Source of the DNA: Nanobdellota archaeon
GTDB lineage: Archaea > Nanobdellota > Nanobdellia > SCGC-AAA011-G17 > GW2011-AR17
Direction of reading: 5' to 3'
Assembly (NCBI GenBank): GCA_018896675.1
Contig: JAHIMK010000018.1
Location: 1-21,485 of the forward strand
DNA: 21,485 bases
Of the stretch, positions 1 through 15,717 are shown piece by piece. The notes beneath the pieces are model-generated. The model was not told the origin of the DNA, made no database searches, and saw only the letters and a program-made list of their open reading frames with translations. A program made the position numbers and the translations under genes. How positions within the stretch are numbered: position 1 is the first letter of the stretch; each line of letters starts with the position of its first letter.

Positions 1-40
1 AAAACAAAGTTAAAGAAATCTTCTAAAAATAAAAAAATAC

Positions 41-190
41 GGAGATGCGAACTAAGTGAACCTCACGGTAAGCCTATTGCTGCGCGGCACCGATGTAGCG
101 GAGCCGAAGGCGGAGCGGAGCGACATCTGGTGAGTTACAGGCGGCGGTTTCATGGGCGACGGGCGGCGTTTTCCATAAGACTTATAAGGA
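41..190. other. G+C-rich island of unknown nature (possible structured RNA or foreign DNA fragment)
   Basis: Hand count gives 75 G+C in 120 nt over 61-180, versus clearly AT-rich flanks. An imperfect hairpin pairs caccgatgt (88-96) with acatc-t-ggtg (123-132), 9 bp with one bulge. No convincing ORF and no recognisable RNA family motifs. Confidence 0.3.
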
Positions 191-232
191 AGGAATAAAT
201 TATTGCTGTAGAATCAATTGGGGGTAGATAAA

Positions 233-532
233 ATGGCTGTAGATGATAAAGTAAAGAAGATACACGAAGAGCTAAAAGAAAAATGGCTACCTATATTTAG
301 GGTAGGGTATGGAGCTGATGCAATAATTGAAGATATGGAATGTGTAAGAGCAGGAATACACGGGACAACATATAGGATTTTTGTTAAGAATCCGGAAGGG
401 AAGGAAGGAGAGCATTATCTTAGGTTGCTACCAGGAAACAATCACCCTGCAATGATTGACGGGGTATTGACTCAAGAAGGTCAAAATTATGTTGACTTTT
501 GGTCGGAGCACGGGAAAGTTGTCTGGTATTAG
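233..532 (+). CDS. hypothetical protein (99 aa from ATG 233)
   Basis: Open frame. GGGGGT (220-225) lies 7 nt upstream of ATG 233; the track start at 218 is a TTG extension. Oligo-T follows the stop. G+C is visibly higher than most of the window. No family recognised. Confidence 0.5.
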   Translation: MAVDDKVKKIHEELKEKWLPIFRVGYGADAIIEDMECVRAGIHGTTYRIFVKNPEGKEGEHYLRLLPGNNHPAMIDGVLTQEGQNYVDFWSEHGKVVWY

Positions 533-540
533 TCGCCCGC

Positions 541-559
541 TGTTTTTTTCTTTTCTTTG
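541..559 (+). terminator. oligo-T archaeal-type terminator candidate
   Basis: tgtttttttcttttctttg lies directly after the stop at 532. T7 and T4 runs are typical archaeal termination signals. Confidence 0.4.
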
Positions 560-745
560 TATTAGGCTTGTGAGCCACCTGAACTTTGCCTAACAGGAAT
601 TAATTTCAATTTTGCCCCTCGTAACATAATCATAAAAAATATTAAGATTGTCAATAAAGTCCTTCAAAGAAAGCCGCAAAAAAACCTAAGAAATTTTTTA
701 ATCAAAAACCAATATTTAAAAATAAGAAAATCCTGTTAACTATAA

Positions 746-1462
746 ATGAAAAATAATATCAAATACAAAGCAGCCACATTAGATGAAAGAAAAGAATATT
801 ACGAAAAAGAATTCTCTATAACAAAAGCCAAGCAATGGTTCAAAAAAAATAACATGAACCTGCCGCAACTTTGCGCATTAGATGCAGGTAGTGATACAGG
901 AATAATATTAAACAAGAAATGGAAAGATAAGATGTTTTATTTTGAATTCAAGGATTTAAAGAAGAAAATTCAGAAGTATAATCCGGAAGACATTTATTAT
1001 GACAGAAATGTTTATGATAATCCTAAAAAAGTGTTGGACACATTAAAGTTTGACAAACGGATAAAACAAGAACTTACGTTTGATATTGATGCAGATAACA
1101 TAAAATGCTCCTACTCAAAGCCTGTCTGTGACAAGTGCTTAAGCAAAGCATATGATTTTGCCATTAACATGAAAAAGGAATTGAAAAAATCCGGTTTTAA
1201 AAAAATAAGATTGGTTTATTCCGGCAGAGGCTTTCATCTTCACATATTAGATAAAAAAGCTTATTTCTTAAGTATTAAAGAGAGGGATTTACTTAATAAA
1301 AGATTCAATAAATATCCTATCGACCCATGGGTCTCAAAAGGCAATATCAGGCTTATAAGACTTCCTTATAGCATGAATGGGTTAGTATCTAGGATAGCAA
1401 CACCTGTAGAAAAAATATATAAAAAAGAAAAAACAATCCCTAAGTTTCTTAAGCTTTCTTAG
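746..1462 (+). CDS. priS: DNA primase small (catalytic) subunit PriS, short form (238 aa)
   Basis: AEP primase motifs are present: FDIDAD (motif I acidic pair), YSGRGFHLH (motif II SGxGxH) and DPWVS..RLIRLPYSMN (motif III). A Cys cluster CSYSKPVCDKC also fits. Confidence 0.8.
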   Translation: MKNNIKYKAATLDERKEYYEKEFSITKAKQWFKKNNMNLPQLCALDAGSDTGIILNKKWKDKMFYFEFKDLKKKIQKYNPEDIYYDRNVYDNPKKVLDTLKFDKRIKQELTFDIDADNIKCSYSKPVCDKCLSKAYDFAINMKKELKKSGFKKIRLVYSGRGFHLHILDKKAYFLSIKERDLLNKRFNKYPIDPWVSKGNIRLIRLPYSMNGLVSRIATPVEKIYKKEKTIPKFLKLS

Positions 1463-1532
1463 CTTTTTTCTTATAATAACTTTTTTTCTTGGCAGCTGCC
1501 TTTTTTGGTACGGCTTTTTTCTTTGCAGGCAT
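1449..1532 (-). CDS. 27-aa Lys/Ala-rich micro-ORF (MPAKKKAVPKKAAAKKKSYYKKKAKKA)
   Basis: Not in the ORF track because it is under 60 aa. ATG is at 1532-1530, preceded by GAGGTGA with 5-nt spacing. It overlaps the priS 3' end convergently by 14 nt. Coding status is unproven. Confidence 0.35.
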   Translation of the reverse strand: MPAKKKAVPKKAAAKKKSYYKKKAKKA

Positions 1533-1654
1533 TTTATTCACCTCTTAAGAAGATTTTTATTGCTTCTTAAGTAATCTTATGATTTTTTTCATATTTAAAT
1601 GATTCTAAATTAAAAACCATAAACTTTATAATAAAAATAGTGTTATTCCAATCT

Positions 1655-2833
1655 ATGATGTTCCAAGAGGTCTATATGGACAATGGGGCAACCACAATGG
1701 TTGATCCTAAAGTTTTGAAAGTTATGATTCCTTATTTTGAAAAGCATTATGGCAATGCATCTTCTACACATTCATTTGGTGAAAAAGCTAAAGAAGCTTT
1801 AGATGATGCTAGAAGAGTTATAGCTAAAGCGATTAATGCCAAGCCTGAAGAGATTATATTTACTTCTGGTGGTACAGAATCAAATAATTTGGCTTTGAAA
1901 GGATTAGCTTTTGCTAATAAAGATAAGAACCATATAATTACAACTAAAATCGAACATAAGTCTATTATCAATACATGCAAATGGTTAGAAAAACAAGGTT
2001 TTAAAATTAGTTATTTGAGTGTTGACAAGGAAGGTTTTGTTAATCCAAAAGATTTAGAAGCTGTAATAACTTCTAAGACATTGCTTTTTACAGTATTGCA
2101 TGGCAATAATGAGATTGGTACAATAAATGATTTAGAAGTTTTAGGTAAAGTTTGCAAGGAAAATAATATTTTATTTCATACAGATGCATGCCAAAGTTTT
2201 ACTAAAGTTGATATTGATGTTGAAAAACAACATTTAGATTTAGTAACTTTAAATTCTCACAAGATTCATGGCCCTAAAGGTGTTGGTGCTTTATATTTAA
2301 AAAAAGGAATTAAAATAGAAGTTTGGCAACATGGAGGCAATCATGAACGCGGTTTAAGGTCTGGTACTGAAAATATTCACGGCATTGTTGGTTTTGCTGA
2401 AGCGGCTAAAATTGGATTGAATAAAAAGCATGTAAAACAAATGTCAGAGTTAAGAGACAAAATGATTAATGAAATCTTAAAAATTCCAAAATCAAAATTA
2501 AATGGTGCTAAAGGCGATAAAAGATTGTGTAACAATATTAACTTTTCATTTAACTCAATTGAAGGAGAAGCTATCGGCGGTTACTTAAATCAAAAAATGA
2601 TTACAAGTTCAACCGGATCTGCTTGCTCTGCAAAAACTTTGGAGCCAAGCTATGTGTTAAAAGCTATTGGCTTAACAGATGAAGAAGCTAATGGAAGCTT
2701 AAGATTGACTATTAGCAGATTTACTACAGAAAAAGAAATAGATTATGTTATTGAAGTTTTGCCGAAGGTTATTGAAAAACTAAGAAAAATTTCTCCTTTA
2801 GGAAAACTAGCTGATTATATAATGAAAAATTAA
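1655..2833 (+). CDS. iscS: cysteine desulfurase, class V aminotransferase (IscS/NifS)
   Basis: N-terminal YMDNGATT, TSGGTESNN, the PLP-lysine motif SHKIHGPKG, RSGTEN, and the catalytic-Cys loop SSTGSACSA. I prefer the start at ATG 1655/1658 (MMFQEVYMDNGATT) over the GTG at 1640 used by the track. Confidence 0.9.
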   Translation: MMFQEVYMDNGATTMVDPKVLKVMIPYFEKHYGNASSTHSFGEKAKEALDDARRVIAKAINAKPEEIIFTSGGTESNNLALKGLAFANKDKNHIITTKIEHKSIINTCKWLEKQGFKISYLSVDKEGFVNPKDLEAVITSKTLLFTVLHGNNEIGTINDLEVLGKVCKENNILFHTDACQSFTKVDIDVEKQHLDLVTLNSHKIHGPKGVGALYLKKGIKIEVWQHGGNHERGLRSGTENIHGIVGFAEAAKIGLNKKHVKQMSELRDKMINEILKIPKSKLNGAKGDKRLCNNINFSFNSIEGEAIGGYLNQKMITSSTGSACSAKTLEPSYVLKAIGLTDEEANGSLRLTISRFTTEKEIDYVIEVLPKVIEKLRKISPLGKLADYIMKN

Positions 2834-2843
2834 AAAATATTTA
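2762..2843 (+). repeat. copy 1 (functional) of the duplicated iscS 3' end; partner at 3993-4073
   Basis: The last 23 codons plus stop match 3993-4064 at 61/72 nt with no indels. There is an identical 23-nt run, 2769-2791 = 4000-4022. Confidence 0.85.
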
Positions 2844-2888
2844 ATCACTGGCGAACCAAGTACAATTTAATTCTCAATTCAATAATTT

Positions 2889-3083
2889 TTAATTACTTTT
2901 TTTTACATTAACTGCTTTTGGACCCCTATCTCCTTCTTCTACATCAAATGTAACTGTGTCGTTTTCGTTTAAAGTTACATCTTCATCTAATGCTGATTTA
3001 TGGACAAATATTTCTTTTCCATCTTCAGCGGCAATAAACCCAAAGCCTTTACTTTCATTAAAAAATTTTACTGTTCCTTTCAT
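2889..3083 (-). CDS. csp: cold-shock domain protein (CspA family)
   Basis: 64 aa with RNP1 KGFGFI and RNP2 IFVHKS. AAGGAGA Shine-Dalgarno lies upstream of the ATG. Confidence 0.9.
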   Translation of the reverse strand: MKGTVKFFNESKGFGFIAAEDGKEIFVHKSALDEDVTLNENDTVTFDVEEGDRGPKAVNVKKSN

Positions 3084-3237
3084 TTTTTATCTCCTTATAT
3101 TTACTTATTGTTTTTTAAAAACTACCTAACAAATTTGTCAAATAAAAATTTTAATCGACAAATAGTCAAAAAGCCCTAATATATAAAATAAATAGTTCCT
3201 TTTTAAATGCTTCTATTTTATTCATTACGGCTATTAC

Positions 3238-3529
3238 ATCCTATTTAGAATCTGTGCTATCACGTTTTTAGGGCACAAGGAGATATTACCTATATAGAGT
3301 GAATAAATATCAGACAAATGGCAAAGCAGAAAGATTCTTTTTGATATACAAAACAGAGTTCGCGACTGGAAGTTTTTCTAGCCTAAAAGACTTCATTAAG
3401 CATTATAATAAAAGCCACCCTTATATGCGCCTTCATTATAAAACTCCTAAAGAAGTTTGGGATTCATTCAAAGTGCCTTAGTTTCGAGGTGTGCCTTAAT
3501 TTCGGGATAACACAATCCTATTTAGAATC
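3238..3529 (+). mobile_element. internally deleted IS481-like insertion sequence remnant with TIRs and a 15-bp target-site duplication
   Basis: The direct repeat atcctatttagaatc occurs at 3238-3252 and 3515-3529, immediately outside imperfect 24-nt terminal inverted repeats. The repeats are tgtgctatcacgtttttagggcac (3253-3276) and gtgccttaatttcgggataacaca (3491-3514), matching at 18/24 when one is reverse-complemented, with TGT termini. The interior encodes only a DDE-integrase C-terminal fragment. Confidence 0.7.
3299..3481 (+). pseudogene. C-terminal fragment of an rve-type DDE transposase/integrase
   Basis: QTNGKAERF (the catalytic-E region of the DDE triad) and HYNKSHPYMRLHYKTPKEVW match the conserved end of the integrase core domain. 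The N-terminal two-thirds is absent. Confidence 0.7.
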
Positions 3530-3567
3530 ACAAACCCTTATATACTGATGCCCTTTCTAACATATTT

Positions 3568-3936
3568 ATGGCAAGATTTGAACGTTCAAAAGAAAGAAAA
3601 AGCAAAACTGATTTTAAAGGTAGTTTTCAAAAGAGAAATACCGGAAGTAGGATGAATTTTGAAGATAATCCTGAGGTAAGGGAAAGGAGATATCCTGATA
3701 GAGAATTTAGACCTAACAGGGGAAATAGGCGCGAAGTCCAGATGACTAAAGTTACTTGTTCTTCTTGTGGTGAAGAATGTGAAGTTCCTTTCAAACCAGT
3801 TTCAACCAAACCTGTCTATTGTAATGATTGTTTTGCAAAAAAAGATAAAGGTAGTTTTGGTAAACCTTCTAATAAAGATTTTAACATAATTAATGAAAAA
3901 CTTGACAAAATAATGAAGGCTTTAGATATTGAATAA
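3568..3936 (+). CDS. CxxC-x17-CxxC zinc-ribbon domain protein with basic N-terminal region
   Basis: CSSC-(17 residues)-CNDC, counted directly, in an Arg/Lys-rich 122-aa protein. A TATA-like cccttatatac lies about 30 nt upstream. Confidence 0.6.
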   Translation: MARFERSKERKSKTDFKGSFQKRNTGSRMNFEDNPEVRERRYPDREFRPNRGNRREVQMTKVTCSSCGEECEVPFKPVSTKPVYCNDCFAKKDKGSFGKPSNKDFNIINEKLDKIMKALDIE

Positions 3937-3992
3937 ATTAATTTTTCTATTATTTTTGCCTTTTCTAATTTAATTGTAAAAAACAATAAGAA

Positions 3993-4064
3993 CCCAAGAT
4001 TATTGAAAAACTAAGAAAAATTCCCCTTTTAGGGAAATTAACTGATTCTGTAATGAAAGATTAA
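3993..4064 (+). pseudogene. relic copy of the iscS 3' end (last 23 codons plus stop), detached from any gene body
   Basis: It translates as PKIIEKLRKIPLLGKLTDSVMKD*, versus the IscS C-terminus PKVIEKLRKISPLGKLADYIMKN*. An in-frame stop lies just upstream (3987-3989). Its TAA overlaps the stop of the convergent gene 4061-4900 as TTAA. Confidence 0.85.
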
Positions 4065-4900
4065 AATATTTTTTTCAATTCCTTTATTCTTGTATCATAC
4101 TCTATAGAAAACCTAAACAAATTCCAAAAAACTTTCTGCAGCCAGGCAATCCATTCCTTATCATGAATTTCATAAAAAATCCTCTTGTTTTTCTCGATTT
4201 CATTCAGCTTATATTTATGTAAATACTCTTCAACTTTAAACTGCGCAAAATCATCATCAATAATTAGCCCTCTTAATGGCTGATAACAATGCCTAATTTC
4301 AATAAGATTTGGATATTTTTTAATCAAAAGCAAAAGCTGATTGATGTTTTTGATTGAAGTTACAGTTATTCTTGTTAATATCTTAAATTGAACTTTTCTC
4401 TTAAGCAACTCTTCCATAACAGACAAAACTTTTTCACCGTTTTCTTCTATATTTGTAAAAGACAGATTCCCGGAGAAAAAATATATATGGTTCTTTGCTT
4501 TACGCATAGATGAAATTAAGTTTTGATTCTCAGGCAATAGGGATTCATTAAATTCTTCGGAAAATACTTTTTTCTTGTCTTCTAGGATATATTGGTATAT
4601 TTCCATGAAATCAAAATCATCTTTCCATCTTCCTACTTTAATTTGATTAAAAAAATTCTCCTTTAGATCATCTGTATGCATTGATCCAGCATGATTATAG
4701 AATACAATTTTCAATGCGCCTTGTGTTCCTTTCCTAAATACCTTAATGTCTATCTGGCCTGTCTGTTCTTTAATTTGTTTTACATAAGAATCTGCCGTGA
4801 GCCAACTTTTTTTTATTAATTTAGACACTTCTTGGATTGTTTTAGGCTCAGCTTTGACAAAGCTTACAATTTTCTTTATATCTTGCTCTTTTAGAACCAT
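4061..4900 (-). CDS. putative transcriptional regulator, N-terminal winged helix plus uncharacterised C-terminal domain (TrmB-like architecture, weak)
   Basis: The N-terminal segment TIQEVSKLIKKSWLTADSYVKQIKEQ looks like a wHTH. The C-terminal IRHCYQPLRGLIIDDDFAQF resembles the TrmB C-terminal domain. The gene is divergent from the radical SAM cassette. The product call is tentative. Confidence 0.35.
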   Translation of the reverse strand: MVLKEQDIKKIVSFVKAEPKTIQEVSKLIKKSWLTADSYVKQIKEQTGQIDIKVFRKGTQGALKIVFYNHAGSMHTDDLKENFFNQIKVGRWKDDFDFMEIYQYILEDKKKVFSEEFNESLLPENQNLISSMRKAKNHIYFFSGNLSFTNIEENGEKVLSVMEELLKRKVQFKILTRITVTSIKNINQLLLLIKKYPNLIEIRHCYQPLRGLIIDDDFAQFKVEEYLHKYKLNEIEKNKRIFYEIHDKEWIAWLQKVFWNLFRFSIEYDTRIKELKKIF

Positions 4901-4935
4901 TTTAGATAATGAGATTTCATTAGTTTATATATCTT

Positions 4936-4990
4936 ATTAAACACTATTATAAAAAAATTAAACCTAAGTTTATCTTTAATTAAACACTAT
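4936..4990. promoter_or_regulatory. divergent promoter region with a 12-nt direct repeat (candidate operator)
   Basis: attaaacactat occurs at 4936-4947 and 4979-4990, 43 nt apart, each adjacent to cttatta. TATA-like atatataaac sits on the minus strand about 25-35 nt from ATG 4900. AGGTGA precedes ATG 5010. Confidence 0.35.
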
Positions 4991-5009
4991 AATCTTATTA
5001 GGTGATAAA

Positions 5010-5495
5010 ATGATGTCATTGATTGCTTCACAATTCGGTGTAATGGAAGAAGAAAAAGGCAAGGGTGTTGACTTAGAGGCATTTGTTAAAGCGCTTAAAA
5101 TTAGATATGAGAATTCACGAAGCCCTTCGTATCCTGGATGTGATTCATATCGTCTTGGTCCTGTAGAAACAGGAAGAATATGCCAAGCAATAGAAGAAGC
5201 AAAGGAACTAAACATTCTTTATCAGGAAGAATCAAGAGTTTATTTTGTTTGGGATGAAATGGAATCTATGCCTGAAAGTTACTTTCTTCATTATTTGAAA
5301 AAAATGGGTAAAGAGATAAGCAAAGATTGTAAAAATCTTTCTATAAGCCTAAGGCATTATAAAAATTTCCTTGAGAATATCAAAAAAATCAAAAGGAACA
5401 CTAAAGATATTGATGATGAAGTTATTTCTATTGATAATGTTATAGAAAAATTAAATGAACAAGAAATTAAAGGAGCTAAAAATGGCTTGCATTGA
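5010..5495 (+). CDS. hypothetical protein, first gene of the radical SAM cassette
   Basis: 161-aa ORF with AGGTGA 4 nt before the ATG. Its end overlaps the next gene. No family recognised. Confidence 0.55.
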   Translation: MMSLIASQFGVMEEEKGKGVDLEAFVKALKIRYENSRSPSYPGCDSYRLGPVETGRICQAIEEAKELNILYQEESRVYFVWDEMESMPESYFLHYLKKMGKEISKDCKNLSISLRHYKNFLENIKKIKRNTKDIDDEVISIDNVIEKLNEQEIKGAKNGLH

Positions 5496-6348
5496 AAAAA
5501 TCTATAGTGTATCTGCATTGGTTGGAAATGGTTCTTGTAATGCCAATTGTGATTTTTGCGCAGGGAAATATCTAAGGCCTGAAGCTAAGGAAAACAAACT
5601 TTATGATAAAAATTTAGAGGCTGCTATTAAATTGTCTGCTCGTTATGGGGGCTGGTCATTATCATTGACTTCAAGCGGAGAAGTTACTTGTGATTCCGAT
5701 GCCTTAATAAGAGCACTAAAAGTCTATCAAAAGTGTGCTAATCAAGGAGCTTATTTTCCTAATGTAAACTTATTTACTAATGGCATTCTTTTAGGTGATA
5801 AAGAATTTTGTAATAAATACTTAGATATTTGGAGAGAATTAGGATTAAATAATATCGCAATATCAATCCATAATGTAGATGAAAAAGAACAAGCAAAAGT
5901 TTATGGTTTGAAAAATTATCCTAAATTAGAAACAATTGTTAGTAATATTGAAAAGCATAGCTTGGGCGTGAGAGGAACTTTATTGCTTAGAAAAGGAGGA
6001 GTTGATAATTACAAGAAATATGAAAAATCAGTCAAAATTCTTATTGGGAAAGGCATTAATAATATCACTTCTTGGCCAGTCGGCAATCCAGATAATACTA
6101 GGAATAAGTATACTCCTTCAAGATTAAGCTTATTTGGAATAAGAAGTTGGTTGCATTTAAATGCAAAAAAATGCCATGGTCATGCCTGGGGCGGAGGAGT
6201 TTTTGATTATAAGGGGAATATCTTAAGATATACTGATTATGTCACCAAGCATAATCCCAAAAAGGATTTCGTAAGGCAGTTGGTTGTTTTCCAAGACGGG
6301 ACAGTTGCTTATTCATGGATAAGAGAAGGAGCATTATGCATAAGATGA
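5482..6348 (+). CDS. radical SAM enzyme (288 aa from ATG 5482), subfamily unassigned
   Basis: C19-x3-C23-x2-C26 in GSCNANCDFCAG, an SSGE (GGE-like) motif, FTNG, and ISIHNVDEKE. AGGAG (5471-5475) lies 6 nt before ATG 5482, which I prefer to the track start at 5455. There is no SPASM or twitch Cys cluster. Confidence 0.8.
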   Translation: MACIEKIYSVSALVGNGSCNANCDFCAGKYLRPEAKENKLYDKNLEAAIKLSARYGGWSLSLTSSGEVTCDSDALIRALKVYQKCANQGAYFPNVNLFTNGILLGDKEFCNKYLDIWRELGLNNIAISIHNVDEKEQAKVYGLKNYPKLETIVSNIEKHSLGVRGTLLLRKGGVDNYKKYEKSVKILIGKGINNITSWPVGNPDNTRNKYTPSRLSLFGIRSWLHLNAKKCHGHAWGGGVFDYKGNILRYTDYVTKHNPKKDFVRQLVVFQDGTVAYSWIREGALCIR

Positions 6349-6361
6349 AAAGGAGGTTAAA

Positions 6362-6901
6362 ATGGAAGAATTGGAATTAAAAAATAGGACAATTGACGCT
6401 TTATTACTGGGCTTCAAAGACCCAATAGCCTATGACTTATGCATCCCAAGCCTAAAAGTTATTTTTCAAAGTGTGCAATATTCAATTATTGAAGGATTCA
6501 AGTCAAAGTATCCGCACCTAAAAGCTAATTATTATGAAGAGACCAAGGATTTCTTTAGGGAAGGTTGTCTTAGATCAGCGCTTGAACCAATAAAAGACCT
6601 CCAGACTAAAGTCAAGGATTCATTGATAAGCGTATTAGCAAAGACAGCCGGGTGTGACTATGAAGGAGGATTTTTGTGGCCACCATACATGGAAACTGCA
6701 TTTAAGGATTTGCACAGGTATCGGGAAGTTAATTTTTCAAGGCATTGCAGCATCTATAAATTCAAAGAACCAAGAGAAAATGTGAAAAAAGAAGTAAAGA
6801 AGCATTTCAATGCAAAGGAAATGAAAAACTTTTATAAGCTGCATAAACATATGAGGGCTTATCTAAATAAAAGATTGGAATTTGTATTGGACACCATATG
6901 A
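6362..6901 (+). CDS. hypothetical protein, paralogue A (179 aa)
   Basis: AGGAGG (6351-6356) lies 5 nt before the ATG. It aligns end to end with the next gene (shared LELKNRTIDAL, PIK..KVK.SLI.VL, YKFKE.RE.VKKEV.KHFN, NFY.LHKHM.AY). Confidence 0.65.
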   Translation: MEELELKNRTIDALLLGFKDPIAYDLCIPSLKVIFQSVQYSIIEGFKSKYPHLKANYYEETKDFFREGCLRSALEPIKDLQTKVKDSLISVLAKTAGCDYEGGFLWPPYMETAFKDLHRYREVNFSRHCSIYKFKEPRENVKKEVKKHFNAKEMKNFYKLHKHMRAYLNKRLEFVLDTI

Positions 6902-6912
6902 GGAGGAATAAA

Positions 6913-7443
6913 ATGGATAAACTGGAATTGAAAAACAGGACAATTGATGCTTTAGTATTGGGCTTCAAAAAACCGATAATGTATGACCTATATCTCCCTG
7001 ACCTGAAGATTGTATTAAAAAGTTTCCAGCATTCTATGAACAAATTATTTAGAGAAAAATATCAGGAGTTAGAAGAAAAGCATTATGCAGATATAAATAA
7101 TTTCTTTAAAAAACCAGCCCTAGAATATATTTTCAAACCAATAAAAGAAATGAGAGTAAAGGTTAAAGAATCATTAATTGAAGTATTAGGAAAACAATCA
7201 GGACATGATTATGGTGGAACTTATTGGAACAAGCCATATATAGAATATGTTTTCAAAAATTCTGAAAGATATGAAGAAGTAATCTTTCCAAATTTGGGTA
7301 GCCTCTATAAATTCAAAGAAGAAAGAGAAGAAGTAAAAAAAGAAGTAAGAAAACATTTTAATAAAGCAGAAATGGAAAACTTTTATCAACTCCATAAACA
7401 TATGCAGGCTTATGTTGACAATCACTTCAAAATCCAACCTTAG
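6913..7443 (+). CDS. hypothetical protein, paralogue B (176 aa from ATG 6913)
   Basis: AGGAGG (6901-6906) lies 6 nt before ATG 6913 and overlaps the paralogue A stop. The track start at 6898 sits inside the SD. It is homologous to 6362-6901. Confidence 0.65.
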   Translation: MDKLELKNRTIDALVLGFKKPIMYDLYLPDLKIVLKSFQHSMNKLFREKYQELEEKHYADINNFFKKPALEYIFKPIKEMRVKVKESLIEVLGKQSGHDYGGTYWNKPYIEYVFKNSERYEEVIFPNLGSLYKFKEEREEVKKEVRKHFNKAEMENFYQLHKHMQAYVDNHFKIQP

Positions 7444-8087: not shown

Positions 8088-8154
8088 TATTTTTCATCCC
8101 GTTTTTCACAATCGAAAAGCTTATAAATAAAAGATATTACTAAATAGTAGTAAA

Positions 8155-9003
8155 ATGTTTAAAAAAATATCAAATGGATTAAAAAAAGCAGGTTTGATTT
8201 TCTTAGGAACTTTAATACCATATATTCCTATGGAAGCGCAAGCTCAAGAAGCAACTGTACAAACTCAAGAAACTTCGATTAAAGAAGGAAAATTAGGAAT
8301 TAGTTATGGCAATAAAGAACAAAGCTTAATGGGCAGAGATTTTGCAAAAGGACACTCCATTGAATTCGATGCTGAAGCTAGGATTAAAATTAATGAAAAA
8401 GCAGGCATAAAATTAGATGGTTTAGTAAGGTTAGAAGAATTTGATTATGTTGATGGAAATGGAGATATAAAAAATGGATTTTTAGATACTAATTTAGTTT
8501 TAGAAAGATATGTTGGATTGGGCAATAGTACTATGAGAATAGGTTTTGGAGTTAATTTTGATTTTAATAGAACTGAACAAACATATGAAAATATTAAAGT
8601 TAATGTTAAAAATATTACTGCTGGACCTGTAATTACAACTAATATTGATTCAGATTACGTTGATTTTAATATATTATTAGGATCTGGATTTGGTAAAGCT
8701 GGTAATGATGTTCAAGGTCAAGGTTTAGGAATTAAACCTAAATTAAGAATAGGATTAAATTTTGATTTAAAAAAATTTAATGTTCCTTTAAGATTAGAAA
8801 ATTATGGAGATATTGAAATTACTTTATTAGAAACCGAGAATACTACAAGAAATGAATATAATCTAGAATTAGGTACTGAACTTAATTATGAAATTGTAGA
8901 TAATCTTTCAGTTGGTTTAGGATATTCACATAGCAGGCATTATGGTAACCAAGATAATGTCCAAAGCAATACTTTAAAAGCTGGATTAAAGGTAGAATTT
9001 TAA
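8155..9003 (+). CDS. secreted protein with outer-membrane beta-barrel-like features
   Basis: N-terminal signal peptide with an AQA-QE cleavage-type site. There are many alternating-hydrophobic strands (MRIGFGVNFDF, LRIGLNFDL, LSVGLGYSHS). The C-terminal LKAGLKVEF alternates hydrophobic residues and ends in Phe. A TATA (cttataaata) lies about 30 nt upstream. Confidence 0.55.
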   Translation: MFKKISNGLKKAGLIFLGTLIPYIPMEAQAQEATVQTQETSIKEGKLGISYGNKEQSLMGRDFAKGHSIEFDAEARIKINEKAGIKLDGLVRLEEFDYVDGNGDIKNGFLDTNLVLERYVGLGNSTMRIGFGVNFDFNRTEQTYENIKVNVKNITAGPVITTNIDSDYVDFNILLGSGFGKAGNDVQGQGLGIKPKLRIGLNFDLKKFNVPLRLENYGDIEITLLETENTTRNEYNLELGTELNYEIVDNLSVGLGYSHSRHYGNQDNVQSNTLKAGLKVEF

Positions 9004-9064: not shown

Positions 9065-10252
9065 ATGAATAAACTAATCTTTACAATGTTAATAATGTTA
9101 TTATTTGCAGTTAGTTTTGTAAGTGCTACAGACTATAGCATTGAAAAAGTTGCTATTAACGGACTTTTTATTGAAAATGAAACAGTAGCTTTAGACTTAG
9201 GTACCAGAGCGCAAATTGATGTTTGGGTTAAAGGTTTTGCTGAAAAAGATGTTAAGGTAAAAGCTTGGATTAGTGGTTATGAGTATGATGATGTTCAAGA
9301 TGTTTCTGAAACTTTTCAAGTTTCTACAGATACATTGTATAGAAAAGAATTATACTTAAATATTCCTCAAGATTTAAGATTAGATAATAAGAATTATAAA
9401 TTATATATTGAAGTTTCTGACAAAAAAGATTATGTTGAAAAAGTTTATTCTGTTCATATTCAAGAAAGAATTCATGATATAATTGTACAAGATGTTATTA
9501 TCAGGCCAGGCACAATGACTGATGCTGGCAATACTTTGGCTGTGCAAGTTAGGTTAAAGAATTATGGTAAGAGACAAGAGCAAGATGTTAAGGTTGAAGT
9601 TACTATACCTCAACTAGGAGCTTATTCTGTTACTTATGTTGATTTTTTAGATTCAATTGACAGCAATGATAATAGTGAAAGCACAGCTTTTATTCCTTTA
9701 AAGATTCCTAAAGATGCTCCAACTGGAGATTTTCAAATTAAAGTTAAGGCTTTATACAGTAACTTAAATGAAGAGACTGAAGCTACAAGGATGATTTATG
9801 TTAATGGTATTGATGTTCAAGCTGAAAAACAAGCTGGAAGCATTGTGTTGATTTCTTCTAAAAAAGATCATGCTTTGAAAGAAGAAACTGAATACAAAGT
9901 TGGAATTGCTAACTTAGAGAAAAGTAGAAAAAGTTATACTGTTCAAATTACTGGCTTGGATGACTGGGCAAATTATGCTATCATGCCTGCTTCTTTAGAT
10001 GTTCTTGGAGAAGGTTCAGGAGAGTTCTTGTTAAAGGTTATTCCTTTTGATTCTGGATTGCATAAGTTTACTGTAAAAGTTTTAGAGGCTGGCGTTGTTG
10101 TCAAGGAAAGCTCTTATAGTGTAGATGTTGCTACTGAGAAACAAGGTTTGTTCAATAGCAATAGAAATTTAATTTTAGGATTAATGATTGTTGTTTTAGC
10201 AATTGCTTTGATTGCTGCTATTGCGCAAGGTATGAAACCTGAAAAGCACTAA
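9065..10252 (+). CDS. cell-surface protein: signal peptide, Ig-like/CARDB-like repeats, C-terminal transmembrane anchor
   Basis: N-terminal MLIMLLFAVSFVSA. Repeated beta-rich modules such as NTLAVQVRLKNYGKRQEQDVKVEVTIP. C-terminal LILGLMIVVLAIALIAAIA followed by a basic tail. TATA at 9031-9038. Confidence 0.6.
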   Translation: MNKLIFTMLIMLLFAVSFVSATDYSIEKVAINGLFIENETVALDLGTRAQIDVWVKGFAEKDVKVKAWISGYEYDDVQDVSETFQVSTDTLYRKELYLNIPQDLRLDNKNYKLYIEVSDKKDYVEKVYSVHIQERIHDIIVQDVIIRPGTMTDAGNTLAVQVRLKNYGKRQEQDVKVEVTIPQLGAYSVTYVDFLDSIDSNDNSESTAFIPLKIPKDAPTGDFQIKVKALYSNLNEETEATRMIYVNGIDVQAEKQAGSIVLISSKKDHALKEETEYKVGIANLEKSRKSYTVQITGLDDWANYAIMPASLDVLGEGSGEFLLKVIPFDSGLHKFTVKVLEAGVVVKESSYSVDVATEKQGLFNSNRNLILGLMIVVLAIALIAAIAQGMKPEKH

Positions 10253-10254
10253 AA

Positions 10255-11103
10255 ATGAGAGAAATATTGTTTAGACCAAATAAAGAATTAATAAAATTAT
10301 TATGTGATAAAGAGAATATTCCCATTCTAGAGCATATTATTGAAAGAGATGGAAAAGAATTTGAAAGATTAAAACAACTTAAAGAAAAAGGATTAATAAA
10401 TCTTGGGGAAAAAGTTAGAAAAAAAGAATTTAAAGATATTTGTTATGAAATAAAAGCAGAAGTTGATGGTTTATTAGACATACAAAATACTATTTTACCA
10501 AAGACTAAACAAAGAACTTTTTTTTCTAATGATTTAGGATTATTTTTGGCTTATATTGCAACCCCTGCTTTAATTAAAAGTGGTAGACTTTCTGATGTTT
10601 TATTTATGGGATTAGCTATAACTATGGTAAAATTATCAATGTATAATTCTTCATATCACTACATTTTCAAAAGAATTAAAATAACCAAACAAGATAAATA
10701 TTTAACAAAAATTATATTTGCCCATGAGTATACTCATTTTTTACAACATAAAATCCTTAATTGTGATTTTCAAAAGCATAAGATGTTTACTGAAGGCCAT
10801 GCAATAGGAGTAGAGAAAACTTTAGTTAATTTATGTTCTGAACCAGAACAAAAAGATAATTTTCTTTATTCTGAACTTAAACAAAGGTTCTCAGGATTAA
10901 AACAAGCCTATTATTCCTTATGTGATAGACTGAATGTTAAATGTCATGAAAGTCTTTTAAATATAGATAAACCTTTTGGAAATAAATTAAAACGTTTTTT
11001 TAAAAGAGGATCTTTTCTGTATCATGATGCAGGAAACGCTTTATTCCAAATATATGAAGAAATTCATGGCAAAGATATTTACAAACAAATTTTACAGGCT
11101 TAA
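10255..11103 (+). CDS. putative HExxH zinc metallopeptidase-like protein
   Basis: AHEYTHFLQH is an HExxH motif with a downstream E in FTEGHAIGVEK. Two hydrophobic segments precede the motif. The gene starts 2 nt after the surface-protein stop. Family not identified. Confidence 0.4.
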   Translation: MREILFRPNKELIKLLCDKENIPILEHIIERDGKEFERLKQLKEKGLINLGEKVRKKEFKDICYEIKAEVDGLLDIQNTILPKTKQRTFFSNDLGLFLAYIATPALIKSGRLSDVLFMGLAITMVKLSMYNSSYHYIFKRIKITKQDKYLTKIIFAHEYTHFLQHKILNCDFQKHKMFTEGHAIGVEKTLVNLCSEPEQKDNFLYSELKQRFSGLKQAYYSLCDRLNVKCHESLLNIDKPFGNKLKRFFKRGSFLYHDAGNALFQIYEEIHGKDIYKQILQA

Positions 11104-12878: not shown

Positions 12879-13973
12879 ATGAAAAAAGAGGTAATAAAAA
12901 AAGGATTTAGCAATATTTATGATAACATCAAAATAATAATTGAACAAGCAAGAAACAAAACTTTCAAAGTAATTAATTCTGTTATGGTTCAAGCTTATTG
13001 GGAAATAGGAAGAACTATTGTTGAAGAAGAACAAAAAGGTAAGAAAAGAGCTGATTATGGCAAATATTTGATAAAAGAGCTTTCTGAAAGATTAATAAAA
13101 GAATATGGTTCAGGGTTTAAAGAAAGAAATTTATATGAAATGCGTAGATTTTACTTAACTTTTCCAAAATGGAACGCACTGCGTGCAAAATCTCAAAAAA
13201 GCCAGAAATTGCACCCAGTGGGTGCAAAATCTCAAAATATTTATGATAAATTAAGCTGGACCCATTATAGATTCTTAATGCGAATAAAAAAAGAAAATGC
13301 AAGAAAATTTTATCTTATAGAAACAGCTAAGAATCAATGGAGTAAAAGAGAACTTGAAAGACAAATAAATAGTTTACTTTATGAAAGGCTTAGCTTAAGT
13401 AAAAATAAAAAAGAAGTAAAAGAATTTGCTAAAAAAGGACAGATAGTAAAAAAACCAGAAGATATTATAAAAGACCCTTATGTTTTAGAATTCTTAGATT
13501 TAAATGAAAATAAAAAATATCTTGAAAAAGACCTAGAAAGTTTACTTATAAGTAAACTCAAAAGTTTTTTATTAGAACTGGGAAAAGGATTTTCATTGGT
13601 TTCAAGGCAAAAAAGAATTAATGTAAGTAATGAACATTATTACATTGATCTTGTTTTTTACAATTATATTTTAAAATGTTTTGTATTAATTGATTTAAAA
13701 GTTGGTAAATTAAGCCATAAAGACATAGGACAAATGGATTTTTATGTAAGATATTTTGAAAAAGAAATTAAGCAAGAAGATGATAATCCTACAATTGGAT
13801 TAATCCTTTGCTCTGACAAAGACGATACAATGATAAAGTACACATTATTAGAAGATAATGACAAAATATTTGCTTCAAAATATAAACTTTGTTTACCTAC
13901 AGAAAAACAATTAAAAAAAGAATTAACAAATGAAAGATTAAAAATCGAAATGGAAAAAAAACTAAAAAATTAA
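12879..13973 (+). CDS. DUF1016/YhcG-family PD-(D/E)xK nuclease-like protein
   Basis: YWEIGR, LSWTHYRFLM, KDPYVLEFLDL, and the core YIDLVFYN..FVLIDLKVGKL typical of the family. I prefer ATG 12879 to the TTG at 12825 used by the track. Confidence 0.75.
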   Translation: MKKEVIKKGFSNIYDNIKIIIEQARNKTFKVINSVMVQAYWEIGRTIVEEEQKGKKRADYGKYLIKELSERLIKEYGSGFKERNLYEMRRFYLTFPKWNALRAKSQKSQKLHPVGAKSQNIYDKLSWTHYRFLMRIKKENARKFYLIETAKNQWSKRELERQINSLLYERLSLSKNKKEVKEFAKKGQIVKKPEDIIKDPYVLEFLDLNENKKYLEKDLESLLISKLKSFLLELGKGFSLVSRQKRINVSNEHYYIDLVFYNYILKCFVLIDLKVGKLSHKDIGQMDFYVRYFEKEIKQEDDNPTIGLILCSDKDDTMIKYTLLEDNDKIFASKYKLCLPTEKQLKKELTNERLKIEMEKKLKN

Positions 13974-14023
13974 ACTTTTTTTAATTTAGCCACATGAAAA
14001 CCTTAGTGTCATTATCTTGAGAC
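13970..14023 (-). pseudogene. relic copy of the 3' end of the RNA methyltransferase gene (frame broken)
   Basis: The reverse complement tctcaagataatgacactaaggttttcatgtggctaaattaaaaaaagtttaa aligns with the real end cctcaagataatgatactgaaggattttatgttgctaaaataaaaaagtgttaa (14762-14815). Identity is about 80% with indels, and there is an identical 13-nt run 14009-14021 = 14802-14814. Confidence 0.8.
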
Positions 14024-14068
14024 ACATATAATTAAAAAAGATTTCTACAAAAGATCTACTTTGATCAA

Positions 14069-14716
14069 TTATAATTCTAATCGAACATTTTTATATCTTG
14101 CCATTAAATCTTTAACTACATCTTTTGTCCATCCGGTAGTATCCTTCTTTTTAAGTTCATCCCAATAACCTTTTTTTTGTAATGTCTCAATTATTTCATA
14201 AGTAGTCATATTAGCATGGCCAAAAGGCCCAACACCACTAATTGCAAAATAAGACACAAGAGAATTAGGTTTTAAATCCTGGTAATATCTTCCTTCCATT
14301 TCAGTCATTTGATAAAGCATATCTTCTCTATTTTCAAAGCCATCTTTTAATATTTCTTTATCAGTAAGTTCCTCAAGCGGGCAAACTGCAATGTAATTTA
14401 ATCTCATATAATCTCTTGCAATTTTACCTTTATTAAACTCAGAACTTTCAAAGATTAAGAGATTATCAGATAAGGGCAAATAGATATGCTCAGGTTTATA
14501 TCTTATAGTTCCTAATTTAAAGGAACCATTAAGAAAAGGTTTACTTTTTGAATTAATAGGCATAGCATCAAAATGATGTTCACCTCTGAATAATAACCAA
14601 GGAGAAATACGCAGTTTTAATCCTTCCTTAATTAAGTCTTCCATAAATTTCTTACCTTCAAAACCCATATTTTCATCGAAACAACCATAAGTTATTTTTA
14701 AAATTTTTCTTGCCAT
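14069..14716 (-). CDS. hypothetical protein (215 aa), cargo of the insert at the methyltransferase 3' end
   Basis: Long ORF with its own TATA-like ttatataaac about 30 nt upstream. The segment ELTDKEILKDGFENREDMLYQM resembles the end of ASCH-type domains only weakly. Product not assigned. Confidence 0.5.
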   Translation of the reverse strand: MARKILKITYGCFDENMGFEGKKFMEDLIKEGLKLRISPWLLFRGEHHFDAMPINSKSKPFLNGSFKLGTIRYKPEHIYLPLSDNLLIFESSEFNKGKIARDYMRLNYIAVCPLEELTDKEILKDGFENREDMLYQMTEMEGRYYQDLKPNSLVSYFAISGVGPFGHANMTTYEIIETLQKKGYWDELKKKDTTGWTKDVVKDLMARYKNVRLEL

Positions 14717-14761
14717 GAACTACTAAAAACTATTAGAAGTTTATATAATTTTGCTAAAAGA

Positions 14762-15670
14762 TTAACACTTTTTTATTTTAGCAACATAAAATCCTTCAGT
14801 ATCATTATCTTGAGGCCAGATTCTTAATGTCTTCTTAACCTCTGAAGAATAAGATTTGCCTTTAAACTCTTCAATAGGCTTTCCACGTTTAATGTCAAAA
14901 TCAAAATTTTCAACCTTAGCATTGTCAAATTCATTCAATATAAAGTCAACAACACCCTCATTTTCATCTGGCTCCAAAGTGCAAGTACTATAAACTAAAG
15001 TCCCACCTACTTTTAACTTGTTAAATGCTATTTTTACTAACTGTTTTTGTAAGCCACACATCTTTCTTGAAAATTCTGGATTCCAAATTTGGATAGTTTT
15101 CAAAGATTTTCTTATTGTGCCTATTCCTGAACAAGGAGCATCTACCAAAATTTTATCAAACTCTAAATTAGTATTAGCAAAGTATCTTCCTTCCATTAAT
15201 GTAATTAAAGCATTAGAAATCCCACATCTCTCCAAATTATAAACTAAAGGTTTCATTCTGTCTATTCTATTATCATTCGCAATTAACAAGCCTTGGTTTT
15301 GCATCATTGCTGCCATTTGTGAAGTTTTTGAACCAGGAGATGCACACATGTCTAAAACAAGTTCATCTTTTTGTGGATTTAAAACAATTGGCGGAATCAT
15401 TGATGCTGCACCTTGAATATAGATATATCCTAAAAAATGTTCATTTAAATTTCCTATACCATAACCTTCTAACCAAAAGCCTTCTTTGCACCATGGAACT
15501 TGTTTTAAGTTCATATCTGTAAAACGTTTTTTTATTTCTGCTATAGAAGTTTTTAATGTATTAACTCTAATAGATTTTCTTAAAGGTTTTAATGAATATT
15601 CTAAAAATGCTTCAATATCTGTTAATCCGTGGTATTGTTCAATAAATTTCTTTTTCCATTCAGGAGCCAT
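14762..15670 (-). CDS. NOL1/NOP2/Sun-family RNA cytosine-C5 methyltransferase
   Basis: SAM-binding LDMCASPGSKT, the catalytic motifs DAPCSGIGTIRK and LVYSTCTLEPDENE. I prefer the start at ATG 15670 (MAPEWKK), which is 26 nt from the TATA, so the transcript is probably leaderless. Confidence 0.85.
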   Translation of the reverse strand: MAPEWKKKFIEQYHGLTDIEAFLEYSLKPLRKSIRVNTLKTSIAEIKKRFTDMNLKQVPWCKEGFWLEGYGIGNLNEHFLGYIYIQGAASMIPPIVLNPQKDELVLDMCASPGSKTSQMAAMMQNQGLLIANDNRIDRMKPLVYNLERCGISNALITLMEGRYFANTNLEFDKILVDAPCSGIGTIRKSLKTIQIWNPEFSRKMCGLQKQLVKIAFNKLKVGGTLVYSTCTLEPDENEGVVDFILNEFDNAKVENFDFDIKRGKPIEEFKGKSYSSEVKKTLRIWPQDNDTEGFYVAKIKKC

Positions 15671-15691
15671 AATTATAATTATATAGATAAG

Positions 15692-15700
15692 TTTTATAAA
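15692..15700. promoter_or_regulatory. TATA element in a 47-nt divergent intergenic region
   Basis: ttttataaa is centred about 26 nt from ATG 15670 (minus strand) and about 22 nt from ATG 15718 (plus strand). A second AT-rich box ttatatag at 15679-15686 could serve the plus-strand gene. Confidence 0.4.
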
Positions 15701-15717
15701 GCTATTCCTCTTCAAAT

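Follow-up and report, generated by a model that had tools for sequence, protein, structure and literature searches.

Insertion-duplication of the Campbell type, in which a circular or recircularized DNA containing a chromosomal segment recombines homologously, is known from insertion-duplication mutagenesis and from natural transformation. Changes of gene order by tandem duplication-random loss (TDRL) are best documented in animal mitochondrial genomes (PMC3326299, PMC5481413). Prophage e14, in the 3' end of the icd gene of Escherichia coli, leaves a 163-bp pseudo-icd (PMC6379469), and phage 21 likewise uses icd. Here we analyze a duplicated 3' end of the cysteine desulfurase gene iscS in a stretch of 21,485 nucleotides of a Nanobdellota archaeon (GenBank contig JAHIMK010000018.1; hereafter, the window), which is contig C142 of genome G000 (1.43 Mb in 147 contigs, about 94% complete). 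The names under which homologous proteins are recorded assign this genome to the Woesearchaeota/Nanoarchaeota (DPANN). The second copy of this gene end is most likely the scar of a local reshuffling of gene order and not of a mobile element, because the DNA between the two copies consists of the upstream neighbors of iscS itself in the closest relative that was found. This relative is represented by L088, a 10.3-kb contig of a Logan assembly that was reached by querying a protein collection with the C-terminal 56 residues of IscS, which yielded P0122 (85% identical over these residues). Among the reference genomes, G001 alone represents another species of the genus, and the sampling of the genus amounts to three genomes.

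The functional iscS gene (1676..2833, plus strand, with alternative starts at 1640 and 1655) encodes a cysteine desulfurase of the Aminotran_5 family (PF00266, E=7e-82) with 88% amino acid identity to its counterpart in L088 and 78% to that in G001. Its last 23 codons and stop (2762..2833, plus strand) recur as a relic at 3993..4064 on the same strand, within a direct repeat of 81 nt (2762-2842 vs. 3993-4073) that shows 84% identity and contains no indel. In the coding part of the repeat, 61 of the 72 nt are identical and the stops are in register, as had been reported in the first-pass annotation of this DNA. The self-BLAST of the repeat (E=1.6e-18 within the window, E=1e-16 against the 1.43-Mb genome, in which BLAST detected no third copy) confirms that it is genuine and far above chance. 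The relic is preceded by an in-frame TAA at 3987-3989, and its own TAA shares the tetranucleotide TTAA with the stop of the convergent gene orf279 on the minus strand (4061-4900); both of these features, the 23-nt run of perfect identity discussed below and the 4-nt overlap of stops at 11100-11103 were found exactly as annotated. The arrangement is not an assembly artefact because the whole filled site is present in five independent assemblies, with 99.85-100% identity to the window in each, and shorter Logan contigs from three sequencing runs agree with the window over their extent and show no alternative arrangement. All strain-level assemblies that span the site are filled, with no variation within the segment.

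The initial interpretation of the repeat was that a decayed or non-autonomous integrative element, consisting of the cold-shock gene csp, the zinc-finger gene znf and a remnant of an insertion sequence (IS), had inserted site-specifically at the iscS 3' end and brought a replacement end with it, the two copies being the attachment sites attL and attR and the identical 23 nt the crossover core. The direct repetition of the end of the target gene with the stops in register speaks for such an element, and so does the architecture, which is like that of e14 in icd (PMC6379469). The 23-mer (2769-2791 = 4000-4022) is statistically ordinary and provides no evidence of a crossover core because, given 11 differences in 72 nt, an identical run of at least 23 nt has P=0.11, and because it encodes IEKLRKI. 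This peptide lies within the motif LPK[IV][IV]EKLRKISP[LF], which is the most conserved C-terminal motif of the family, is found again in the tails of the 120 retrieved homologs of IscS and is retained in the working tail. At the conserved ISP position of this motif, which is ISP in the working tail and in most of the homolog tails, the relic codes for IPL, as would be expected for a decaying copy, and the relic scores as the more distant of the two for each of the 120 homolog tails. The L088 tail agrees with the working tail at 57 nt and with the relic at 55 nt, compared to 61 of 72 between the two G000 copies; changes unique to one sequence amount to 4 (working tail), 6 (relic) and 10 (L088). 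By these counts, the two G000 copies are nearest to one another, and the drift of the relic is only modest, so the event is far more recent than the divergence from L088. The relic corresponds to no known RNA, given that Rfam and tRNA scans of positions 1-5200 were negative.

The gene order in L088 is S8e(-), DUF305(-), csp(-), znf(+), iscS(+), AAA_28(+), orf279(-), followed by orf161 and a radical-SAM gene (both with 80% amino acid identity to the window). The csp-znf pair thus placed immediately upstream of iscS has the same divergent orientation as in the window. Within the window, csp (2889..3083, minus strand; 64 amino acids, cold-shock domain, PF00313, 5e-23) is 81% identical to the L088 protein, and znf (3568..3936, plus strand; 122 amino acids, CxxC-x17-CxxC zinc finger of the zf_Tbcl_2 family, PF23477, 2.5e-16) shows 57% amino acid and 75% nucleotide identity to its L088 counterpart, with the place and orientation relative to csp kept. 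The promoter-like blocks of the csp-znf spacer are conserved in L088 as well. The region upstream of iscS in the window (1614..1675, plus strand), which includes the promoter, is homologous to the znf-iscS spacer of L088, and the alignment of window positions 1614-2864 with L088 positions 5937-7190 shows 82.5% identity. The order in the window, iscS(+), csp(-), znf(+), relic, orf279, is accordingly a cyclic permutation of the L088 block in which all orientations are retained. Because G001 and L088 have the left-hand synteny in common (o228, PMT, o497 and S8e, then iscS and orf279), and this left-hand block is located on contig C12 in G000, it is G000 that is the rearranged genome. The csp and znf genes are therefore not foreign to the locus, as an integrative element would have them, and the annotated gene calls for iscS, csp and the CxxC-x17-CxxC protein all hold in the Pfam comparison.

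The homology between the window and L088 continues past the iscS stop into the next gene. Positions 2832-2870 read KKYLITGEPSTI followed by a stop, against the AAA_28 start MKYVLTGGPSTGK in L088, and the stretch 2834..2870 (plus strand) is a remnant of the 5' end of this AAA_28 P-loop gene, corresponding to its first 12 codons. When the comparison is anchored to the stops, 22 of the 34 nt are identical, a value reached by 0 of 20000 shuffles and by 12 of 20000 random 36-mers of the window; only this anchored test is significant, and a free local alignment of the stub is not (P about 0.1). Apart from the stub, no ortholog of AAA_28 was found in G000. Because the stub of the native downstream neighbor follows the working end of iscS, this end is in its native context and is not element-borne, contrary to the proposal that the functional end had been rebuilt at attL. 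The spacer between iscS and csp is thus a novel joint, the AAA_28 stub joined to the 3' flank of csp, which either a tandem duplication or a circularization of a block composed of csp, znf, iscS and the beginning of AAA_28 would create.

The other end of the segment is illuminated by G001, where iscS is directly convergent with orf279 and the stops overlap as TTAG; the empty site predicted in the first-pass annotation, iscS facing the homolog of 4061-4900, is present in this genome. The G001 junction aligns with the sequence downstream of the relic and not with that downstream of the working iscS, and the junction of the relic with orf279 is homologous to it except for a 24-nt internal deletion in G001. 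The comparison supports the relic as the iscS 3' end in its ancestral position beside orf279, so the suggestion that the relic is the displaced original end fits what was found, and orf279 (4061..4900, minus strand; a conserved Woesearchaeal protein of 279 amino acids, with 81% identity in L088 and 78% in G001) is the gene that iscS originally faced in convergent orientation. G001 also lacks a homolog of znf. Taken alone, the evidence from G001 would support insertion. In addition, the sequence of the convergent junction, AAAATATTTT (4061-4073 and 2831-2842), was observed to be its own reverse complement and to resemble the start of AAA_28 (ATGAAATAT), a microhomology through which AAA_28 could enter or leave the space between iscS and orf279.

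No intact integrase had been noticed in the window, and a Pfam comparison of all open reading frames (ORFs) of positions 1-6350 bears this out: the only recombinase-related match is a C-terminal rve_3 fragment, and a tyrosine or serine recombinase is absent from the segment and its immediate surroundings. The three tyrosine recombinase genes of G000 (PF00589) are located on other contigs (C40, C104 and C121). Mobility of the csp-znf insert, which had been anticipated in the form of copies at other loci, finds no support either. For the closest znf homologs (P0002 and P0003), the surroundings are ordinary chromosomal DNA, with neither csp nor a fragment of iscS nor an integrase, no relative of znf was detected in IMG/VR, and the family is common in Woesearchaeota in varied chromosomal contexts.

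The rve_3 fragment (3299-3481) belongs to a secondary insertion in the csp-znf spacer, a 262-bp miniature element of the IS481 type at 3253-3514 (3238..3529 with its target duplications; no strand assigned). It has terminal inverted repeats (TGTGCTATCACG... and ...CGGGATAACACA) and is flanked by a 15-bp target duplication, ATCCTATTTAGAATC, at 3238-3252 and 3515-3529. Three further copies are present in the genome (C147:2462-2678, C40:18653-18833 and C15:9317-9483), and none of the four copies examined includes or accompanies a full-length transposase gene. The affinity to IS481 that had been proposed for this piece stands, but the piece is a complete element with inverted repeats and a target duplication rather than a remnant. 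With these repeats, the 15-bp target duplication, the several copies and the rve_3 fragment, it is similar to the miniature inverted-repeat transposable elements of the IS481 family. The corresponding site is empty in L088, and the element, which sits inside the segment, did not cause the duplication of the iscS end.

While the cyclic order, the remnants of iscS and AAA_28 and the ancestral junction with orf279 are seen directly in the sequences, we infer the route of duplication, the deletion of a gene body and a role in termination for what was left. We consider it rather probable that the relic is the tail of a once complete second copy of iscS that was located between znf and orf279 and arose by duplication followed by loss. 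The csp-znf-iscS block together with the first 40-55 nt or so of AAA_28 would have been duplicated by one of two routes. Under route (a), a tandem duplication would have occurred within the lineage and redundant copies would have been lost subsequently. Under route (b), a Campbell-type single crossover inside iscS would have taken place with a circularized fragment of a relative that had the order csp-znf-iscS-AAA_28, followed by a single deletion; the recipient would have been a chromosome of the ancestral type, with overlapping iscS and orf279 and without AAA_28, and this route would therefore explain the coexistence of both types of junction. By either route, the stop of the second iscS copy would have overlapped that of orf279, and this redundant downstream copy would have lost its promoter and body by deletion while the last 23 codons stayed. 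The outcome would be the order iscS, AAA_28 stub, csp, znf, iscS tail, orf279, in which csp and znf have not moved relative to orf279 and iscS is the relocated part; the 262-bp miniature IS would have landed in the csp-znf spacer later.

Several observations weigh against this reconstruction. No intermediate with two full copies of iscS was found among 40 relatives, in the metagenome scan or in protein look-ups, with a genus represented by three genomes, and the key synteny comes from one close relative, L088, a single contig of 10 kb. Neither a remnant of the iscS promoter or 5' end in 3937-3992 nor a remnant of the lost csp or znf copy in 1463-1613 rises above the shuffle level, so that the duplication of the full gene, as opposed to the tail alone, is a step that we infer. 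Route (a) requires that the second AAA_28 was lost precisely enough to restore the ancestral junction, and route (b) needs a recipient with the order primase-like gene, iscS, orf279, so far unobserved. The sliding-window identity along iscS shows no clear recombination breakpoint beyond the background scatter. The identity to L088 is 88% in the 5' half of iscS and approximately 78% in the 3' half, but these values are within the scatter of the neighboring genes and do not prove a crossover; the profiles do not separate the two routes.

The next most viable explanation, which we nevertheless consider unlikely, is an insertion independent of any recombinase, whereby a piece of DNA became trapped at the iscS/orf279 junction, either in a staggered break or through template switching, which duplicated about 81 nt and left both genes whole, and the same process acted at 13962-14814. 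At that second site, the last 53 nt or so of an RsmB/F-type methyltransferase gene (14762-15715, minus strand), together with 8 nt, are duplicated: a relic of the gene tail at 13962-14021 (61 nt, 84% identity, one 1-nt deletion compared to 14754-14814) has a stop that overlaps the stop of a YhcG/DUF1016 nuclease gene as TTAA, and a gene for a 215-amino-acid protein, called as an ORF without a Pfam match, lies between the copies (14069-14716, minus strand). Break capture would account for two events of the same geometry within 21 kb (81 nt and 61 nt, each 84% identical, with the relics abutting a convergent gene at overlapping stops) and for further candidate gene-end duplications in the genome. 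The methyltransferase gene retains its ancestral 5' neighbor, so the cargo was truly added there. Both the YhcG nuclease gene and the 215-amino-acid cargo gene are missing from G001 at this locus, and a GTDB contig scan with the cargo gene gave no match, nor did IMG/VR scans with it and with the primase-like gene described below. The second event looks like a true addition and may differ in history from that at iscS. For the latter, the captured fragment would have to be the AAA_28 stub already joined to csp-znf, a joint that requires a prior duplication or circularization of a block of the L088 type, and csp-znf would have to be removed upstream of iscS as well, more steps than duplication and loss requires.

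Very unlikely, in our assessment, is a Campbell integration that involved the tail alone, such that a small circle composed of iscS tail, AAA_28 stub, csp and znf entered the chromosome by homologous recombination at the 72-nt tail and a full second iscS never existed. It would directly explain why just the tail is duplicated and why 3937-3992 contains no trace of the iscS body or promoter, but such a circle is contiguous in no observed arrangement except that of G000 itself, and homology of 72 nt offers a far poorer chance of a crossover than homology of 1.15 kb. The integrative element, for which the stops in register, the resemblance to e14 and the empty site in a genome that also lacks znf can be cited, is strongly disfavored and the least probable of all, given resident cargo, a functional end followed by the native AAA_28 remnant, an unexceptional 23-mer and no recombinase; what stands of the original reading of 2834-3992 is that the relic is ancestral and that the empty site exists.

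Under duplication and loss, the survival of the tail itself calls for attention. A hairpin followed by a T-run at 4019..4039 (minus strand), inside the relic and 22 nt after the orf279 stop, is a candidate terminator of orf279 and the only terminator-like site in 2700-4200 (0.6 expected); the antisense strand of the identical 23-mer contains two T5 runs. Four of the 11 differences between the tails fall within the hairpin region and, by our reading, strengthen the predicted stem, whereas whole-stretch RNA folding of both relics was no better than that of shuffles. With low to moderate confidence, we suggest that the relic tail survived as the 3' flank and terminator of the convergent orf279. 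Relics of 3' tails next to convergent neighbors are seen also in the case of the methyltransferase tail at 13962-14021 and in that of the tail of a primase-like gene, which adjoins csp in L088 (approximately 5075-5143; 0/3000 shuffles).

This accessory primase-small-subunit-like gene (746..1462, plus strand; 238 amino acids, PF01896, E=7e-10) is the left neighbor of the relocated iscS in the window, and neither G001 nor any of 36 further genomes of the family yielded a homolog. A lysine-rich ORF of 27 codons, MPAKKKAVPKKAAAKKKSYYKKKAKKA, on the minus strand at 1449-1532, with GAGGTG 6 nt 5' of its ATG, is convergent with the primase-like gene and overlaps its end. On the other side of the segment, some homologs of orf279 are labeled 'predicted transcriptional regulator' in one source. 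The metagenome scan with the orf279 protein yielded a single distant match, and the more distant homologs (P0244-P0246) are not adjacent to iscS; one of them has AAA_28 on the other side of orf279. AAA_28 is also located divergently upstream of the orf279 homolog in L094 (a contig of Logan SRR22388171, 3472-4948), where it replaces the radical-SAM cassette; L094 belongs to a more distant relative (65% amino acid identity for orf279).

Several other arrays were observed elsewhere in G000. On contig C104 (5827-11026), the 3' end of a gene for a 399-amino-acid surface-protein-like product (5827-7026) and the hairpin downstream of it are repeated three times (8095-8290, 9806-9880 and 10975-11026), with small genes between these serial copies. 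The same contig contains, at 47040-56680, eight copies of an intergenic repeat of about 70 nt (GCTTTCTTTGTTAGCTTTGTTTT...AACTAGCTTTGTTAGCTGAGGCAAGTG) between small genes, in a layout similar to a cassette array, and a frameshifted tyrosine recombinase gene (C104:42549-43018) is located some 4 kb from it. Finally, one more gene-end duplication is present on C116.

The iscS locus calls for caution in that duplicated gene ends are not automatically att sites. The empty site in G001 mimicked proof of an element, and it took the closer L088 to reveal that the insert was resident and that a housekeeping gene had been relocated. The locus further outlines a concrete route by which gene order could change and genes could be gained in DPANN archaea without dedicated recombinases, namely, duplication or Campbell-type recombination with subsequent deletion, and it suggests why very compact genomes retain the 3' tails of genes that they have lost, which might serve as terminators for overlapping convergent neighbors. 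Somewhat speculatively, many of the recombinase-free cassettes between duplicated gene ends of ultra-small archaea, and conceivably of further streamlined genomes, may share a single origin in the integration of circularized fragments from relatives or the tandem duplication of a block, with the loss of one copy except for the last 55-80 nt, kept as the terminator of a convergent neighbor. Should this be the case, the iscS locus would bring the mechanism to light, given that its cargo is the upstream neighborhood of the target gene itself, cyclically permuted.

Among the known systems, Campbell insertion shares with this locus the direct repeats of a homologous segment around the inserted DNA and the independence from a dedicated recombinase, and it would explain the joint of the AAA_28 stub with the csp 3' flank as the circularization joint; here, in contrast, the homologous segment would be the whole of iscS, one copy of which was later cut to 72 nt, and uptake and circularization are hypothetical. 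The resemblance to TDRL consists in the cyclically permuted order and in the pseudogene remnants, the iscS tail and the AAA_28 stub, that are left in the new spacers. The differences are that the present case involves the chromosome of an ultra-small archaeon and not an organelle, that no two-copy intermediate has been seen, and that the duplication may stem from recombination with the DNA of a relative rather than from a replication error. As in the case of e14, the 3' end of a gene is present twice around the intervening DNA, with the gene intact and the pseudo-3' end on the far side, but e14 encodes an integrase and brings the replacement end along on attP, whereas at the iscS locus there is no integrase, the intervening genes are resident and the functional end is native. 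The kind of event is already known and amounts to otherwise ordinary genome evolution, of which the iscS locus is a new example.

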